From the NCBI GenBank assembly GCA_036930585.1, contig GCA_036930585.1_3066.1: a stretch of DNA of 64,000 bases. One strand, written 5' to 3'. Below are positions 2,551 through 63,565 of the stretch, one piece after another; positions within the stretch are counted from its first letter, which is position 1, and every line of letters begins with the position of its first letter. This stretch comes from a phage. The notes under the pieces were generated by a model. It made no database searches, was not told where the DNA came from, and worked only from the letters and a program-made list of their open reading frames with translations. The position numbers were made by a program, and so were the translations under genes.

Positions 2551-3114
2551 TTATTTACCTAGTTTACTTATTATAGCTTCTGCAGCAGCTTTTAGCTTAG
2601 ATGCAGTGTTAATACGATTTTTAATTTCAGTATACGCATCGCCAAGAACATCAAGGCTATCAGAATAAACACTTACACTATTGCGTTCGCTATTTGAAAT
2701 AGAACCTTTAGTTTTGCGGTCAAAATCGGTGTACACGTCTTGAAGATCGCGGGCTGCCTTCTTTGCATCATCCAATGCATCAAGAGCTTTATTCAAAGCA
2801 TTAACGTATTTTTTAGTGTCGAACATATTCTTAGAAATTTTAACAGGTGCGCGTTCAGGAGTAGCTAACACAGATTTAGGAACCTGAGCGCCAGATGCCA
2901 ATTTCTTAGAAATTTTGAAAAATGCTTTATTGAATTTATTTTCTTGACTCATTGTAAAAGAACTATTATCGATGTTGTACATTTCAATAGCTTTAGCTTT
3001 CCACTTAAGAAAATCGCCGCGGTCTTTTGGGTCCAATTGGAAGAATACTTTAGTAAGATCTGCTTCAGATGGTAATTTTGCTGCTTCGGTTAAAAATTCG
3101 GCATAGGTTTTCAT
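2551..3114 (-). CDS. internal-protein-like head protein with N-terminal capsid targeting sequence (187 aa)
   Basis: N-terminus MKTYAEFLTEA resembles the T4 IP capsid-targeting sequence MKTYQEFIAE with a gp21-type (L/I)xE cleavage site. Confidence 0.6.
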   Translation of the reverse strand: MKTYAEFLTEAAKLPSEADLTKVFFQLDPKDRGDFLKWKAKAIEMYNIDNSSFTMSQENKFNKAFFKISKKLASGAQVPKSVLATPERAPVKISKNMFDTKKYVNALNKALDALDDAKKAARDLQDVYTDFDRKTKGSISNSERNSVSVYSDSLDVLGDAYTEIKNRINTASKLKAAAEAIISKLGK

Positions 3115-3203
3115 TTAAAATCCTTGAAATAATTTATCGGTTGGTTATTAATTATTTATTACTTTGTTACTATCCGTAACAGCGTTATCCGAGTGATTCA
3201 AAC

Positions 3204-3231
3204 TAAAAAGCCCCAACCTTTCGGTCGGGGC
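3204..3231 (-). terminator. rho-independent terminator (GCCCCGACC-GAAA-GGTTGGGGC + T5)
   Basis: Minus-strand hairpin followed by TTTTT; 31-bp sequence identical to copy at 3759-3786. Confidence 0.6.
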
Positions 3232-3239
3232 TAAGAATG

Positions 3240-3713
3240 TCATTTGATTTGTTTAGCAGACCAAATGCGGTCTTTAATAATTTTTTGGATGTCTTCAACA
3301 TACTCAAGAGAGTGAACATGTGGATTATCTTTGAAACTATAAGCACGGGCTAACTTTTGGCCTTCGGTTTTGATTACTAAAAGCTCTTTAAGGATAGCTT
3401 CATATTTGGAGATAATTCCTTTAACAATATTTTTCTCTTGTGTGACTTTAGGATCTTCTTTAGGAGCAGGTTTACCTGAAGCCTTTGCAAAAGCAGCGCC
3501 AGTAGCAACTAAACTTTTCCAGGCCATACTAACTGCATTCCCTGTAAATCCTTCGGCTTTCATATCACGAGCAAATTGGAATCGTGATTCATCGGAAGCA
3601 TCTTTATAGGAATATTTACCCGCGGCAATGGCTGCTTTTGCGACAGCTTGAATTTCGGTGCTAGATGCTTCATTTAACACCGCTTCATTTAAAAATTGAG
3701 CATATGATTTCAT
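3240..3713 (-). CDS. internal-protein-like head protein with N-terminal capsid targeting sequence (157 aa)
   Basis: N-terminus MKSYAQFLNEA (CTS-like, LNE-A cleavage motif); Ala/Lys-rich; minus-strand TATAAATA upstream. Confidence 0.6.
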   Translation of the reverse strand: MKSYAQFLNEAVLNEASSTEIQAVAKAAIAAGKYSYKDASDESRFQFARDMKAEGFTGNAVSMAWKSLVATGAAFAKASGKPAPKEDPKVTQEKNIVKGIISKYEAILKELLVIKTEGQKLARAYSFKDNPHVHSLEYVEDIQKIIKDRIWSAKQIK

Positions 3714-3749
3714 CTTATTTCCTGTTTTAATTCGTGGTTTTAATATACT

Positions 3750-3757
3750 TATTTATA
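3750..3757 (-). promoter_or_regulatory. late promoter TATAAATA
   Basis: Exact TATAAATA on minus strand about 37 nt upstream of ATG at 3713. Confidence 0.5.
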
Positions 3758-3758
3758 C

Positions 3759-3786
3759 TAAAAAGCCCCAACCTTTCGGTCGGGGC
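3759..3786 (-). terminator. rho-independent terminator (identical copy of 3204-3231)
   Basis: Same hairpin + T-run; ends the transcript coming from the tRNA / stable-RNA region. Confidence 0.6.
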
Positions 3787-3792
3787 TAAGCC

Positions 3793-4098
3793 TTGCGGCA
3801 ACCTTGTCGGGGTTCCACCTGCTAAGGCAAGTGTTTGTACGAAACGCCGGGATTCGAACCCGGTTATTAAGCAGTTGACGCTACTCAATATTTTTAAAAG
3901 GCCATATCTCGACCATATCCGAACGTTCCGTCAAAAACGCTACTCGGCTTACGGCAAAGATATTTCCTCGAATCGATAATTCGGTGCGCCGTTTCAGCTG
4001 TGATGTAAGGGGACATTAACAGATCGTAAAGATTTGTTAATGCCAGTCCTTACCCAGGGAACATCAGTCCGACGACTTACCGGTAGCGACCCGGTTTC
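3793..4098 (-). ncRNA. candidate stable small RNA(s) of the tRNA region (tRNA-like T-arm motif)
   Basis: About 300 bp with no credible ORF between orf 4099..4449 and a terminator; minus strand contains CCGGG-TTCGAAT-CCCGG (plus coords 3847-3863) without a full cloverleaf; by position analogous to T4 stable RNAs rnaC/rnaD. Confidence 0.35.
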
Positions 4099-4449
4099 TT
4101 AATATTCTTTTAAAGCATCAATCTGTTCACGGCGTTTACGCCATAAATTAATTACTTCATAAGCGGATTCAGCATTTCGAATTGGTCGGCATTTATATAA
4201 AGACTTGCGATTTTGATATTGTGTAGATAACGGAATTTTATCTAAAAGGTCTTTACGTTCAAAGTATTCGTAACCATCTAAGCCAAATGAACGATTTTTG
4301 AGAAATTGCCAATGACCAAATTCGTTTTGAATATAAATATAATCCGCGTGTTGATAAAGTAAATTAATTTCACGAAATGAGATATGTTTTTCATATTCAT
4401 TGAAGTAAAATGTTAAATCATGAACTACTAAATAAACATTACCTTTCAT
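4099..4449 (-). CDS. hypothetical protein (116 aa)
   Basis: ORF track; ATG with GAGGA SD; lies between tRNA-Arg and the candidate stable-RNA region. Confidence 0.55.
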   Translation of the reverse strand: MKGNVYLVVHDLTFYFNEYEKHISFREINLLYQHADYIYIQNEFGHWQFLKNRSFGLDGYEYFERKDLLDKIPLSTQYQNRKSLYKCRPIRNAESAYEVINLWRKRREQIDALKEY

Positions 4450-4467
4450 ATTTTCCTCACTTATAAT

Positions 4468-4543
4468 TGGTCGAGGCAGTAGGGATCGAACCTACGACCC
4501 AGGACTTAGAAGGTCCTTGCTCTTCCTTCTGAGCTATGCCTCG
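4468..4543 (-). tRNA. tRNA-Arg (anticodon UCU)
   Basis: Hand-folded: acceptor CGAGGCA/TGCCTCG, anticodon loop CUUCUAA, T-arm GGTTCGATCC, discriminator A, encoded CCA. Confidence 0.85.
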
Positions 4544-4547
4544 TAAT

Positions 4548-4623
4548 TGGGGTGACCGATGGGAGTCGAACCCATGACTACGAGAATCACAATCTCGAGT
4601 TCTACCAACTAAACTACGGCCAC
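4548..4623 (-). tRNA. tRNA-His (anticodon GUG)
   Basis: Acceptor GTGGCCG/CGGTCAC (one G-U), anticodon stem CGAGA/TCTCG, loop UUGUGAU, discriminator C, CCA encoded; no encoded G-1. Confidence 0.65.
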
Positions 4624-4717
4624 ATTAATACCTACTCCAACAATCAAGATGTCTTCACACGAAATTAAGAGAAGAGTGATCAGTTCAACCCCGATAATCG
4701 CGTCAAGTAGATATTAA

Positions 4718-4733
4718 TGTGACAATTGTCACA
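4718..4733. repeat. perfect 16-bp palindrome TGTGACAATTGTCACA (CRP-consensus-like; also an RNA hairpin)
   Basis: In the 114-bp gap between tRNA-His and tRNA-Asn, 4 nt from the 3' end of tRNA-Asn. Confidence 0.5.
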
Positions 4734-4737
4734 AATT

Positions 4738-4812
4738 TGGCGGACGTGATAGGATTCGAACCTATAACCAATCGCTTAACAGGCGATCGCTCTGCCATTG
4801 AGCTACACATCC
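4738..4812 (-). tRNA. tRNA-Asn (anticodon GUU)
   Basis: Acceptor GGATGTG/CACGTCC, D-stem GCTC/GAGC, anticodon stem ATCGC/GCGAT, loop CUGUUAA, discriminator G, CCA encoded. Confidence 0.7.
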
Positions 4813-4816
4813 AAAT

Positions 4817-4903
4817 TGGTGGGGAGTGATGGAGTCGAACCACCCGAGTCGCAATGACAATGGATTTACAGTCCACACCGCTACCTCTACGGGATAACTC
4901 CCC
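4817..4903 (-). tRNA. tRNA-Tyr (anticodon GUA), long variable arm
   Basis: 87 nt; acceptor GGGGAGT/ACTCCCC, anticodon loop CUGUAAA, long variable arm, T-loop TTCGACT, discriminator A, CCA; D-arm pairing irregular. Confidence 0.6.
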
Positions 4904-4916
4904 TTAATTCTTAATT

Positions 4917-4991
4917 TGGTGGCCCTGGGTGGAATTGAACCACCATCTGGCGATTATGAGTCGCTTGCTTGAACCTTCCAGCTACAGGGCC
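4917..4991 (-). tRNA. tRNA with CAU anticodon (Ile2/lysidine-type, or Met)
   Basis: Acceptor GGCCCTG/CAGGGCC, anticodon loop CUCAUAA, discriminator A, CCA; anticodon arm resembles bacterial tRNA-Ile2. Confidence 0.65.
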
Positions 4992-4992
4992 T

Positions 4993-5068
4993 TGGTGCTG
5001 ATTGACGGAATCGAACCGCCGACCTTCTCATTACAAGTGAGTTGCTCTACCTACTGAGCTAAATCAGC
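4993..5068 (-). tRNA. tRNA-Thr (anticodon UGU)
   Basis: Acceptor GCTGATT/AATCAGC, D-stem GCTC/GAGC, anticodon loop CUUGUAA, T-loop TTCGATT, discriminator A, CCA. Confidence 0.8.
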
Positions 5069-5073
5069 AAAAC

Positions 5074-5163
5074 TGGCGGAGGCGATAGGATTTGAACCTA
5101 TGAGTCGCCGGAGCGACTGCCGGTTTTCAAGACCGGTGCATTAAACCACTCTGCCACACCTCC
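5074..5163 (-). tRNA. tRNA-Ser (anticodon UGA), long variable arm
   Basis: 90 nt; acceptor GGAGGTG/CGCCTCC, anticodon stem CCGGT/ACCGG, loop CUUGAAA, discriminator G, CCA. Confidence 0.8.
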
Positions 5164-5165
5164 AG

Positions 5166-5239
5166 TCTCCATACAAGGATTTGAACCTTGGACCTCCTGA
5201 TCCCAAATCAGGCGCTCTACCAAACTGAGCTACACGGAG
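5166..5239 (-). tRNA. tRNA-Pro (anticodon UGG), CCA not encoded
   Basis: Acceptor CTCCGTG/TATGGAG (two G-U), anticodon stem CCTGA/TCAGG, loop UUUGGGA, discriminator A; 2 nt from tRNA-Ser. Confidence 0.75.
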
Positions 5240-5249
5240 TAAATTAAAT

Positions 5250-5323
<74 letters not shown>

Positions 5324-5328
5324 AAATT

Positions 5329-5415
5329 TGGTGCGAGAAGTGGGACTCGAACCCACAAGGAAATCATTCCGCAGCATTTTAAGTGCTGTGCCTTTACCAA
5401 TTTGGCCATTCTCGC
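5329..5415 (-). tRNA. tRNA-Leu (anticodon UAA), long variable arm
   Basis: 87 nt; acceptor GCGAGAA/TTCTCGC, anticodon stem CAGCA/TGCTG, loop CUUAAAA, T-loop TTCGAGT, discriminator A, CCA. Confidence 0.8.
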
Positions 5416-5421
5416 GTTATA

Positions 5422-6030
5422 TTATTTATTACGTGAAAAAGACTGTTCTATCAATTCTGGACACTTTCGTTCTATCCATTTTCTAGCTTTTTGTGGGCTT
5501 ATACCTATTATTTTAGCAGCTTTACTAACCCATCCAAATTTAGAATAATCGATTTTAACTAATTCTTCGTAAATTTCATCAGTTAAAATCTTTTCATTAA
5601 TATTTACCAGTAAATGATATAATTTGTTATCATTAGCAATTTTAATGAATCTTTTATAGTTTCCGCCTTTACTTAAACCTAATGAAGTAATTGCAGATGA
5701 TATAGTAGCCGAATTTAATAATGCGTTTAAAATTTCTTCATCACTAACATTATAACGCTTTTTATTATTTTTAATATTTTTACCAGCAAAAGTATCAGTT
5801 TGCGAATGACAGTTTGGACATAATAATCTTAAATTTGATTTAAGATGATTTTTGTTATTTCCATCAATATGGTCTAATTGCAGAACAATATGCTTATTTT
5901 GCCATTTTGAAATTTTACAAATTGCACACTCATATGGAAAAATATTTTCTTTTATTATTTTGTCTTTCAGCTTTCCTGTACTAAAATTTGGATGTTTTCC
6001 TTCAAAAATTTCAGCTAATTTAGTATCCAT
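5422..6030 (-). CDS. free-standing HNH homing endonuclease (about 202 aa)
   Basis: HNH motif CAICK...LQLDHIDGNNKNHLKSNLRLLCPNCH; basic C-terminal DNA-binding region; track start 6054 appears non-ATG, first ATG at 6030 (MDTKLAEI); abuts the tRNA cluster. Confidence 0.75.
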   Translation of the reverse strand: MDTKLAEIFEGKHPNFSTGKLKDKIIKENIFPYECAICKISKWQNKHIVLQLDHIDGNNKNHLKSNLRLLCPNCHSQTDTFAGKNIKNNKKRYNVSDEEILNALLNSATISSAITSLGLSKGGNYKRFIKIANDNKLYHLLVNINEKILTDEIYEELVKIDYSKFGWVSKAAKIIGISPQKARKWIERKCPELIEQSFSRNK

Positions 6031-6104
6031 AATATGATTCCCAATTATTAACAAAGGCTCTCAAATAAGAACCCTTGATGATAGAGGGTATTAATCAGTG
6101 CGAT

Positions 6105-6146
6105 ATGAGTTAATAATAACAAATAATTCTTAAAGCATATTTACCA
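6105..6146 (-). repeat. about 40-bp repeat containing a MotA-type middle promoter (copy 1)
   Basis: ATGA(G/A)TTAATAATAACAAATAATTCTTAAAGCAT nearly identical to 63522-63565 upstream of gene 31; minus strand has MotA box TGCTTTA + 12 nt + TATTAT. Confidence 0.55.
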
Positions 6147-6431
6147 TTTATAATAATAATACATATTTACGATGCATTCAAGACCCAAAGGATTCTTGAA
6201 AATATCATATTCAAGAGGACCTTTTTCTGTTTCAATAAAGAAATCAAAATTTACTGTATTAAATTTACGTTCTTCCTTCACTAATTTAACTTGAGAAGAT
6301 GAACGGTCAATGTAAACCTTTTCAACTTCAAAACATGTTAAAATGCCATAATCATCAATCAAAGCTTTAGCCGCGTCTTGATCATATTTATATCCATTTT
6401 CAATGGATGATACTTTCGCATAAAGAATCAT
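6141..6431 (-). CDS. hypothetical protein (96 aa)
   Basis: ORF track; ATG start; compact early-gene spacing. Confidence 0.5.
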   Translation of the reverse strand: MILYAKVSSIENGYKYDQDAAKALIDDYGILTCFEVEKVYIDRSSSQVKLVKEERKFNTVNFDFFIETEKGPLEYDIFKNPLGLECIVNMYYYYKW

Positions 6432-6433
6432 TA

Positions 6434-6832
6434 TCAGCCTTCATCAACAATAGTGTGAGTATTAGCATTTACGATTTGCCACCAATCAAAGCGATTAGAA
6501 TCCATCGGTTTGTTTTCATTTTCTTTGATAATGTCACGGAGTTCATCTTCAGAGAATGCTTTAGCGATTAAATCGGTATACCCACCACGTGGATAATAAT
6601 TATCACCTGCAAACAAAAGGAAATTTACCTTCCCGGAAGGAACATACGCTTCCTTAGGATACTTGTTTCCTGCGTGGTCAACCACTTCAATATAACGGTA
6701 AGGAATATCGGTTCTTTCAACCCATTGCCATGCCGCTGCAGGGGAATCGAAAGCATCTACACCTAAACGATTATCTTCATCTTTAGACGGATTATTTTCG
6801 TAATCCGCATATACATAATATTCAACGTTCAT
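6434..6832 (-). CDS. hypothetical protein (132 aa)
   Basis: ORF track; ATG start; stop 2 nt before downstream start. Confidence 0.5.
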   Translation of the reverse strand: MNVEYYVYADYENNPSKDEDNRLGVDAFDSPAAAWQWVERTDIPYRYIEVVDHAGNKYPKEAYVPSGKVNFLLFAGDNYYPRGGYTDLIAKAFSEDELRDIIKENENKPMDSNRFDWWQIVNANTHTIVDEG

Positions 6833-7017
6833 TATTCACCTTTAGAAATTTTATCCATAACAATAGCAATTAAACCAATTAAAAATGCTACTACAAGTGA
6901 AAACACATTTTCTGCTGTAGTCAATAATCCACATATAAATCCAACAAACATTGAAAAACTAAAAGCGGAAGCAGAAATTGCAATAGCAACATTTCGAATT
7001 AATTCACAACGTTTCAT
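6832..7017 (-). CDS. hypothetical small membrane protein (61 aa)
   Basis: ORF track; hydrophobic core FSFSMFVGFICGLLT...LVVAFLIGLIAIVM; promoter cassette upstream. Confidence 0.45.
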   Translation of the reverse strand: MKRCELIRNVAIAISASAFSFSMFVGFICGLLTTAENVFSLVVAFLIGLIAIVMDKISKGE

Positions 7018-7036
7018 TTTATTCTCCTCAGTAGTA

Positions 7037-7075
7037 GATAGGGTAATAGTATCACTACCCTATCTAAAAGTAAAC
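7037..7075 (-). promoter_or_regulatory. early promoter + hairpin cassette, copy A
   Basis: Minus strand GTTTAC-N18-TGaTACTAT; -10 sits in the loop of palindrome GATAGGG...CCCTATC; upstream of orf 6832..7017. Confidence 0.5.
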
Positions 7076-7309
7076 TTATTTTTTACGAAAAATTGATTTA
7101 TTTTCTGCTGCCCATTTTTCAATAACTGCAGCAGGACCAGTAACAACAATTTTATCACCGTAATCTTCTGCGGCGAGTTGACCGAAATTATCTAATGCAT
7201 CACGAAGAACTCCATGAGGCATTTCACCCATTTTATCTTTCTTGCCAGTGTAAATAAACTCAACTTTTACATCAGCAGTTTCAGCAATAAATTCTTGGTA
7301 AGTTTTCAT
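7076..7309 (-). CDS. ipI: internal protein I-like head protein with capsid targeting sequence (77 aa from MKTYQEFIAE)
   Basis: N-terminus MKTYQEFIAE matches the recalled T4 IP CTS exactly; lies just downstream of 57B as ipI does in T4; track ORF begins 4 codons earlier (MEIK). Confidence 0.65.
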   Translation of the reverse strand: MKTYQEFIAETADVKVEFIYTGKKDKMGEMPHGVLRDALDNFGQLAAEDYGDKIVVTGPAAVIEKWAAENKSIFRKK

Positions 7310-7334
7310 TTTGATTTCCATTTGGTTTTGTTTT

Positions 7335-7373
7335 GATAGGGTAATAGTATCACAACTAAAACCCTATGTAAAC
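7335..7373 (-). promoter_or_regulatory. early promoter + hairpin cassette, copy B
   Basis: GTTTAC-N18-TGaTACTAT on minus strand; stem ATAGGGT/ACCCTAT; shares 35 bp upstream sequence with copy C. Confidence 0.5.
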
Positions 7374-7385
7374 AACTTTGTGAAA

Positions 7386-7643
7386 TTATTTTAAATCTTC
7401 TAATCGTTTCTTCATCTTAGAACCATTTTTAGCAATTTCTCCTGCATCGGAGCATAATGCTAAAAGTGCTTTAACTTTAGTTTGGTCTCCTTTAAAAGAT
7501 GAAGGATCGACCGCAGCAGCAAGTTCTTTAATACGAGAGAAAAGACGCTCAGCTTCAGCTAAAGCCATTCCAAGCTTTACTTCCATACCGTGGGAAGATT
7601 CAGTGATAGTAGTTTTTGTAGCAAACTCTTTGAAAGTTTTCAT
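7386..7643 (-). CDS. internal-protein-like small protein with CTS-like N-terminus (85 aa)
   Basis: N-terminus MKTFKEFATK...ITE (CTS-like); C-terminal codons EDLK-stop and downstream 35 bp identical to the 3' end of 57B. Confidence 0.55.
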   Translation of the reverse strand: MKTFKEFATKTTITESSHGMEVKLGMALAEAERLFSRIKELAAAVDPSSFKGDQTKVKALLALCSDAGEIAKNGSKMKKRLEDLK

Positions 7644-63162: not shown

Positions 63163-63498
63163 TCACTTATAAAGACACGGAATAGCTTTATAGTGACAGG
63201 TAACGAATTTTTGTTTAATTTCTTTTGGCTGCTTAAGACCCAGAGCTACAAAAGGATGCGGAACATTTCGAATTTGACCAACTGGAAGAGAAGTCAAATC
63301 GCCAACTTCGCAGAAACCTTCAGGAACATCAGGACCGACAGAGTGAACTACACACAGTTCAGGAACTTCACCTTGAACACGTTTACCGATAATAAGTCCT
63401 GATTCTGTAACTTCTTCATCACCGGCTTGTGCAGGTTCAGAAACTAAAATAACATATTCACCGACAGCACGAATTGGTAGCTGTTGTACTTCAGACAT
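63163..63498 (-). CDS. 31: co-chaperonin gp31 (GroES-like)
   Basis: 111 aa; [61 protein letters not shown] matches recalled T4 gp31. Confidence 0.9.
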
Positions 63499-63521: not shown

Positions 63522-63565
63522 ATGAATTAATAATAACAAATAATTCTTAAAGCATTTATTTACCA
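63522..63565 (-). repeat. about 40-bp repeat with MotA-type middle promoter of gene 31 (copy 2)
   Basis: Near-identical to 6105-6146; minus strand TGCTTTA + 12 nt + TATTAT upstream of gene 31. Confidence 0.55.

Follow-up and report, generated by a model that had tools for sequence, protein, structure and literature searches.

A putative F-TflIV-like HNH homing endonuclease gene in the place of tRNA-Gln, behind the resident middle promoter of a T-even phage tRNA operon

How did an endonuclease gene in a phage tRNA operon come to stand behind a near copy of another gene's promoter? In the 64,000-nucleotide stretch of phage DNA analyzed here (hereafter, the window), a free-standing HNH endonuclease gene abuts tRNA-Leu, and the sequence upstream of it recurs, almost unchanged, ahead of gene 31. 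An initial annotation had offered two explanations, namely that the endonuclease captured a copy of the promoter, or that the shared sequence served as recombination homology when the gene inserted. Our analyses upheld its description of both the gene and the repeat, and led to a different account of how the two came together.

The window belongs to a Tequatrovirus, with 98.7% identity to vB_EcoM_ACG-C40 across positions 4400-7100. On the minus strand, an internal-protein gene is followed by trna.4, trna.3, trna.2, a 110-nt non-coding stretch, the HNH ORF and ten tRNA genes (Table 1). A tRNA search identified no tRNA-Gln in the window, and Rfam over 3600-6400 returned tRNAs only, with no hidden tRNA-Gln; likewise, the ACG-C40 locus has ten annotated tRNA features (gt001-gt010), tRNA-Gln not among them. 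A scan of 5300-7400 found no terminators, and sigma-70-like sites there were no more frequent than in shuffled sequence. At the far end of the operon (4468-4903), tRNA-Tyr, tRNA-Asn and tRNA-His precede tRNA-Arg where T4 has segB, a 114-nt unannotated gap (4624-4737) without an Rfam match separates tRNA-His from tRNA-Asn, and counterparts to T4 rnaC and rnaD were not detected 3' of tRNA-Arg in the window.

Table 1. Positions of the features of the HNH locus and of the gene 31 region in the window.
Feature	Position	Strand	Remarks
trna.4	6832-7017	minus	
trna.3	6434-6832	minus	
trna.2 homolog	6141-6431	minus	96 aa; conserved left neighbor of HNH
Repeat copy 1	6105-6146	minus	begins in trna.2 stop codon
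PtRNA ortholog (subcluster 1)	6113-6140	minus	MotA box ATATGCTTTA 6140-6131, 12-nt spacer, -10 TATTAT 6118-6113
tRNA-operon leader	6044-6106	minus	63 nt; 11-bp hairpin; unchanged in HNH-free relatives
tRNA-Gln 5' remnant	6035-6043	minus	9 nt; TGGGAATCA here; TGGGAATTA in BP32, JoYop and T4
Inserted cassette	5419-6034	minus	~616 bp; in place of tRNA-Gln nt 10-71
HNH endonuclease ORF	5422-6030	minus	202 aa; 609-bp CDS; ATG 6030; stop TAA 5424-5422
Right junction	5416-5418	minus	AAC in window; AGC in 4/8 carriers
tRNA-Leu (UAA)	5329-5415	minus	now heads the tRNAs of the operon; nine others follow, to 4468
tRNA-Arg	4468-4543	minus	last of ten tRNAs
Repeat copy 2, T4 P31 ortholog	63522-63565	minus	begins in gene 31.1 stop codon; start predicted at 63523 (homology to T4 131540)
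Gene 31 (GroES-like co-chaperonin)	63163-63498	minus	111 aa

The mechanically called ORF runs over 5422..6054 (minus strand) and opens with TTG at 6054. We assigned the start to the ATG at 6030, from which the 202-aa product matches phrog_14736 ("HNH endonuclease") over 1-202/202 (E 5e-124), and the ACG-C40 annotation, in which an HNH endonuclease similar to F-TflIV is already recorded, supports this start with the same 609-bp CDS. The gap between the stop codon and tRNA-Leu is 6 nt. The protein has an N-terminal zinc-binding HNH domain (C35, C38, D53-H54, N66, C71, N73, C74, H75), followed by a helical C-terminal region in which a GW..PQK motif is conserved. It thus carries the catalytic D-H ... 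N ... H/N motif of the His-Me finger nucleases (PF01844 group), set on a beta-beta-alpha-metal fold, together with a structural zinc site (CxxC ... CxxC) whose residues C35, C38, C71 and C74 are invariant. The Pfam HNH score of 17.3 bits is under the gathering cut-off of 21.4 bits, searches of the PDB with Foldseek and phmmer gave no significant match, and the tentative assignment of the C-terminal part to DNA binding comes from weak matches. Searches for a GIY-YIG domain gave no match, and the protein has no similarity to T4 SegB.

The repeat upstream of the HNH gene contains an exact 29-mer, TTAATAATAACAAATAATTCTTAAAGCAT, at 6110-6138 and 63527-63555, and these were its only two matches at no more than three mismatches in 64 kb, where none was expected (100 shuffles). 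The similarity extends over 42-44 nt if one mismatch and a 2-nt indel are allowed, includes the TGCTTTA + 12 nt + TATTAT of a MotA promoter, and places this promoter 83-107 nt upstream of the HNH start codon and the second copy of the repeat 24 nt upstream of gene 31. Six MotA-box/-10 matches are present in the window and the spacers of the other four are unrelated to the repeat, which therefore far exceeds a promoter consensus; the initial annotation's caveat that it might be a consensus found at many loci does not apply. At both places the similarity starts exactly at the end of a gene (…TGG TAA AT after trna.2, 6139-6146; …GGT AAA TAA AT after 31.1, 63558-63565).

Both copies have known counterparts in T4. 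According to PMC2988021, the MotA-dependent middle promoter consensus is (a/t)(a/t)(a/t)TGCTTtA, 12+/-1 bp and a -10 TAnnnT, which is matched at 6140-6113, and Hinton's table in the same source (Table 1) lists PtRNA (sc1), with its start at 72593, and P31, with its start at 131540, among the mapped T4 middle promoters. Our alignments located both copies in T4 itself, where the two starts fall on a homologous A, seven nt past TATTAT; by homology to the T4 start at 72593, transcription in the window is predicted to start at 6106. Between the trna.2 stop codon and the start site, the window and T4 do not differ, and the P31 spacer has one mismatch, so that the two repeat copies are orthologs of PtRNA and P31 with no difference in kind. 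The long identity between PtRNA and P31, spacer and flanks included, is not mentioned in the available portion of PMC2988021.

The same promoter, followed by the same 63-nt leader, lies after trna.2 in the HNH-free phages T4, T2, T6, PYPS2T and HP3, in which it runs into tRNA-Gln. In addition, a 201-nt query from the gene 31 promoter region matched 991 places in 520 phage records, that is, about two per genome, and the promoter pair is therefore a conserved property of Tequatrovirus that is independent of HNH. On the evidence of these alignments, the promoter belongs to the T4 backbone and was neither brought in nor captured by the endonuclease, and PtRNA and P31 are two paralogous middle promoters of that backbone, whose 42-44-nt repeat is unrelated to the endonuclease. 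Transcription of HNH in this phage is predicted to depend on MotA/AsiA. The leader makes up most of the 76-nt 5' UTR of HNH; masking of the HNH ribosome-binding site by its hairpin was considered and rejected, as the fold was no better than that of shuffles (z -1.43) and the hairpin is part of the backbone, present also without HNH.

Two variants of this promoter region were observed among the relatives. In BYEP02, a 77-bp tandem duplication (1811-1965) of PtRNA and part of the leader, either real or an assembly artifact, gives two successive promoters upstream of HNH. In T2-type phages, a 171-aa ORF (phrog_2290; T2 1801-2316, also in ES26) lies between trna.2 and PtRNA with its stop codon inside the MotA box (GAT TTG CTT TAA), so that another variable ORF has the promoter as its exact module boundary; ES26 has both this ORF and HNH.

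The origin of the arrangement became apparent from a comparison of the junctions in eight HNH+ phages (the window, ACG-C40, ES26, BYEP02, BP32, PBM-1, Lutter and JoYop) versus five HNH-free phages (T4, T2, T6, PYPS2T and HP3). The same junction pair was present in 8/8 carriers and delimits a cassette that, beyond the ORF, consists of 4 nt of 5' UTR and 3 nt of 3' UTR and has no promoter of its own. At the left end, the remnant of tRNA-Gln, which in the window differs by a C at nt 8, supplies a weak GGGA Shine-Dalgarno-like element for HNH. At the right end, AGC corresponds to the AG that closes tRNA-Gln and the single C that separates it from tRNA-Leu in T4. Insertion thus took place within tRNA-Gln, ~70 bp downstream of the repeat. 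As judged from these junctions, the HNH gene replaced tRNA-Gln, the first tRNA gene of the operon, and would use the resident promoter of that operon. Carriers lose tRNA-Gln because it was a tRNA gene that was replaced, almost exactly, and not an intergenic gap.

Two further observations concern the site itself. The native 5' UTR of HNH homologs with 58% identity (3970-4000 in contigs L013 and L014; GGGTAATTGGAA(A/T)…ATGGAT) resembles the T4 leader/tRNA-Gln junction (TAATAATTGGGAAT; compared with window 6031-6050), a likeness that is possibly a 10-nt microhomology that served the first entry of the cassette into Tequatrovirus, and that could also be due to chance in AT-rich DNA. In addition, HNH-free phages have two tRNA-Gln alleles, one in PYPS2T and HP3 (1905-1977) and one in T4 (3959-4031). 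The changes between them lie in the anticodon stem (CTGGA/TCCAG versus TAGCA/TGCTA) and are fully compensated; nuclease escape might be the cause, whether from the phage HNH or from an anticodon nuclease of the host.

The HNH gene is a presence/absence polymorphism at one fixed locus among collinear relatives. In a tblastn search, 64 phage records, all of them from T-even phages, had one copy each of the protein at >=95% identity, and the full trna.2-HNH-tRNA-Leu context was present in 64/661 records that matched the region (~10%). The remainder matched the flanks only, and those of them whose annotation was shown carry tRNA-Gln in the HNH position. Presence in only about 10% of the relatives is what would be expected of a mobile endonuclease gene. 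No relative was confirmed in an IMG/VR scan with the HNH protein.

Within 40 bp of the cassette, the carriers differ in their leader haplotypes, which match different HNH-free phages, and linkage to flanking SNPs is gone within about 15-40 bp on both sides. A T/C SNP at tRNA-Leu nt 11 (C in the HNH-free PYPS2T and HP3, T in the HNH+ ES26, BYEP02 and others) was considered as a mark of an immune target and rejected. Because the flanking haplotypes vary and the tRNA-Leu SNP is unlinked, we interpret the polymorphism as one insertion that was moved among backgrounds by recombination near its ends. The shuffled haplotypes could result from ordinary T-even recombination without endonuclease drive.

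All eight HNH ORFs are intact and 97.4-99.7% identical (nucleotide diversity up to 2.6%), compared with 95-100% identity in the leader and about 99% in the tRNAs, and lower values further out represent swapped ORF modules. A recent sweep, with HNH much more conserved than its flanks, was not clearly apparent, as its diversity is similar to that of the leader and tRNAs. In contrast to the small number of variable sites elsewhere in the codons, 18/22 fall on third positions, which indicates that the protein is under purifying selection. The catalytic and zinc ligands were invariant among the copies compared, and 64/64 copies aligned at full length in one piece.

Homologs of the HNH protein beyond the T-even phages were also associated with tRNA genes. 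The closest named homolog is F-TflIV of phage T5 (tblastn E 5e-15, with 34.7% identity and 84% of the query covered), whose gene lies 23 nt past tRNA-Ile inside the T5 tRNA cluster, and other T4-like phages have nearer unnamed relatives at the syntenic locus gp2-gp3-gp1-57A-57B-trna.x. The HNH gene of a Klebsiella Marfavirus-like contig (68% identity) is 14 nt past an intact tRNA-Gln and replaces exactly the tRNA-Asn of the HNH-free PhiKpNIH-6, and that of an Erwinia Cronus-like contig (58% identity) stands in place of tRNA-Gln and about 110 nt more. The swapped tRNA genes are thus tRNA-Gln in both Tequatrovirus and the Erwinia phage, and tRNA-Asn beside tRNA-Gln in the Klebsiella phage. Four more homologs with 40-45% identity (L021, L023, L024 and L026) are all directly flanked by tRNA genes; one is 39 nt past tRNA-Gln and two overlap tRNA-Lys by 10 nt. 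In total, 9/9 independent contexts (the window, T5, L012, L013, L014, L021, L023, L024 and L026) are located in tRNA clusters, and by this criterion the F-TflIV-like HNH lineage is one that lives in phage tRNA-gene clusters.

The two homologs that overlap the following tRNA-Lys (L021 2440-3178 and L023 2440-3135, metagenomic, about 43-45% identity) have TATAAATA, a late-promoter box of the T4 type, some 30 nt before the ATG, and so seem to have a late promoter of their own, unlike the copy in the window. The Erwinia-type contig L013 (about 4800-4832) also lacks tRNA-His precisely, with nothing in its place, when compared with Cronus (1851-1926), a second and separate single-tRNA indel.

Several known systems resemble this locus in part. 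F-TflIV (hegA) is a site-specific H-N-H endonuclease from the tRNA region of T5 (Akulenko et al. 2004, as cited in PMC2330249 and PMC5714182), and shares with the window protein the combination of HNH and a putative C-terminal HTH-type region as well as a gene in a tRNA cluster. However, T5 belongs to the Demerecviridae, identity is only about 35%, and F-TflIV follows a tRNA gene. SegB is the GIY-YIG homing endonuclease of the T4 tRNA cluster; it recognizes DNA encoding the tRNA TpsiC motif, its inheritance in T4 x T2 crosses is nearly 100%, and its presence goes with loss of recipient tRNA genes (PMC2330249). It was recently linked to the amplification of anti-defense genes (PMC13096335). Like HNH, segB is a free-standing endonuclease gene of the same tRNA operon, and it is co-transcribed with the tRNAs, as is predicted for HNH, but it belongs to a different nuclease family, has no sequence similarity to HNH and occupies a different slot. 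The initial annotation was thus correct that T4 carries a GIY-YIG gene in its tRNA region and that the families differ, but the two loci are not equivalent. The comparison of tRNA-region architecture across T-even genomes that it had suggested placed HNH in the tRNA-Gln slot and segB directly ahead of tRNA-Arg, where the gene before it is tRNA-Ile in T4 and tRNA-Tyr in T6; BP32 carries both genes, each in its own slot.

Other ORFs in these operons share parts with the endonucleases. In PBM-1, a 202-aa GIY-YIG gene (2628-3236) lies exactly in the tRNA-Pro place of relatives; the N-terminal 117 aa of its product are 82% identical to T4 SegB, and its C-terminus differs and has a 24-aa HTH-like motif in common with the HNH protein (E 2e-4), which looks like domain shuffling between endonucleases of one operon. 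In T2 (2943-3344) and Lutter (2805-3287), phrog_16521 ORFs (133 and 160 aa) in which no nuclease domain was found are present in place of tRNA-Thr. Phrog_16521 has weak matches in the C-terminal parts of two endonucleases, HNH (E 2e-4) and the PBM-1 GIY-YIG protein (E 3e-12), and these ORFs may be nuclease-less endonuclease remnants or free DNA-binding modules.

Seven free-standing endonuclease genes of T4 are promoter-less cassettes that use upstream T4 promoters (PMC2988022), and the Mob endonucleases are in the same His-Me finger group as F-TflIV (PMC5714182). MobA-E are comparable to the window gene as free-standing HNH genes, several in promoter-less cassettes that use upstream T4 promoters as here; they differ in being located at the nrd, alpha-gt and gene 39 regions, in having other C-terminal regions and in that none replaces a gene. 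A likeness of another kind, in line with the idea of the initial annotation, is to promoter-containing repeats that flank and shuffle variable ORFs. The PeSL mobile regulatory cassettes of T4-type phages, reportedly described by Arbiol and colleagues in 2010, are said to consist of an early promoter and a stem-loop that travel with ORFs. Unlike a PeSL, PtRNA is fixed backbone and does not travel with HNH.

We consider it probable that the gene encodes an F-TflIV-like, free-standing HNH homing endonuclease, carried as a promoter-less cassette that replaces tRNA-Gln, is transcribed from PtRNA and spreads by intronless homing. The protein itself is most likely a homing endonuclease specific to tRNA clusters. 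This interpretation builds on the gene and its domain motifs, the junctions, the orthology of the promoter, the distribution, purifying selection and the association of the family with tRNA clusters, and from these it predicts co-transcription, RNA processing, nuclease activity at a target site and homing. In one ancestral event, the cassette would have taken the place of most of tRNA-Gln. HNH would be transcribed from the predicted PtRNA start as the 5' part of the tRNA precursor, its weak translation would proceed via the GGGA element, and RNase P cleavage at tRNA-Leu would end its message 6 nt past the stop codon. During mixed infection, the enzyme would probably nick or cut the HNH-free genome in its tRNA region, with tRNA-Gln or its immediate surroundings as the likeliest site, and recombinational repair from the HNH+ genome would copy the cassette into the place of tRNA-Gln. 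The HNH allele itself would be immune, since hardly any of tRNA-Gln is left after the insertion. Cutting of the tRNA-Gln allele and repair from the HNH allele are plausible because SegB, from the same operon, homes at nearly 100%. Our literature search found neither a report of cleavage, target site or biased inheritance for any Tequatrovirus HNH copy, nor a paper describing the Tequatrovirus HNH, its replacement of tRNA-Gln or the link of the family to tRNA clusters.

Other explanations were weighed against this one. Potentially, the cassette is passive, an old HNH/tRNA-Gln polymorphism reshuffled by T-even recombination and kept by drift or some benefit, with no homing at present. The similar nucleotide diversity of HNH and the neighboring leader and tRNAs and the rapid loss of flanking linkage accord with this, as do the homologs with 58-68% identity at the syntenic locus of other genera, which imply that the lineage is old there. 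Nevertheless, we regard it as unlikely, since strong purifying selection and an intact catalytic motif imply a nuclease in use, and since precise one-for-one replacement of tRNA genes, repeated in three genera, is what break-induced repair predicts. Selection on HNH and its co-existence with segB in BP32 would also suit a domesticated nuclease that excludes competing T-even genomes, or that triggers recombination or amplification of the tRNA region under host tRNA-targeting defenses, a role like that recently reported for SegB (PMC13096335). That the gene is carried by only about 10% of Tequatrovirus records, and that its carriage costs the phage its only tRNA-Gln, makes such a role as its main function rather doubtful, although the role would be compatible with homing.

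The idea that HNH is a decaying relic, the inactive leftover of a past invasion, could appeal to the weak Shine-Dalgarno element and to the Pfam score under the cut-off, yet the full-length alignment of every copy, the concentration of variable sites at third codon positions and the invariant catalytic and zinc ligands make it scarcely credible. Capture or carriage of the promoter by the endonuclease, or use of the promoter sequence as recombination homology, would account for a near identity over 42-44 nt at two places only in the window, and that this promoter can be a module boundary is evident from a T2_138-type variable ORF that ends exactly at the MotA box. However, promoter and leader are present base for base in five HNH-free phages, where they drive tRNA-Gln; T4 has both copies; the HNH junction is ~70 bp away from the repeat; and in a Marfavirus-like relative trna.2 is followed by the same MotA box and HNH occupies another slot. 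Both forms of this explanation are consequently very improbable.

The annotation of the gene as F-TflIV-like and both promoters were already known. What our results add is modest, namely the near-exact replacement of tRNA-Gln, and the consistent location of its relatives, in three T4-like genera and T5, in tRNA clusters and repeatedly at the tRNA-Gln position. More tentatively, and with less confidence than we place in the reading of the single locus, F-TflIV-like HNH proteins might constitute a tRNA-gene-specific homing family that swaps one for one with tRNA genes, such that these enzymes and SegB-like GIY-YIG enzymes, as selfish nucleases, would continually rewrite the tRNA repertoire of T-even phages. 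With the promoter-capture account removed, HNH follows the T4 habit of promoter-less cassettes that depend on a resident promoter. Phage tRNAs are now viewed as counter-defense tools, and the tRNA repertoire matters for escape from host defenses that cleave tRNAs. A second putative nuclease that trades a tRNA for itself, in the operon of SegB, therefore represents a cheap and well-defined experimental target.
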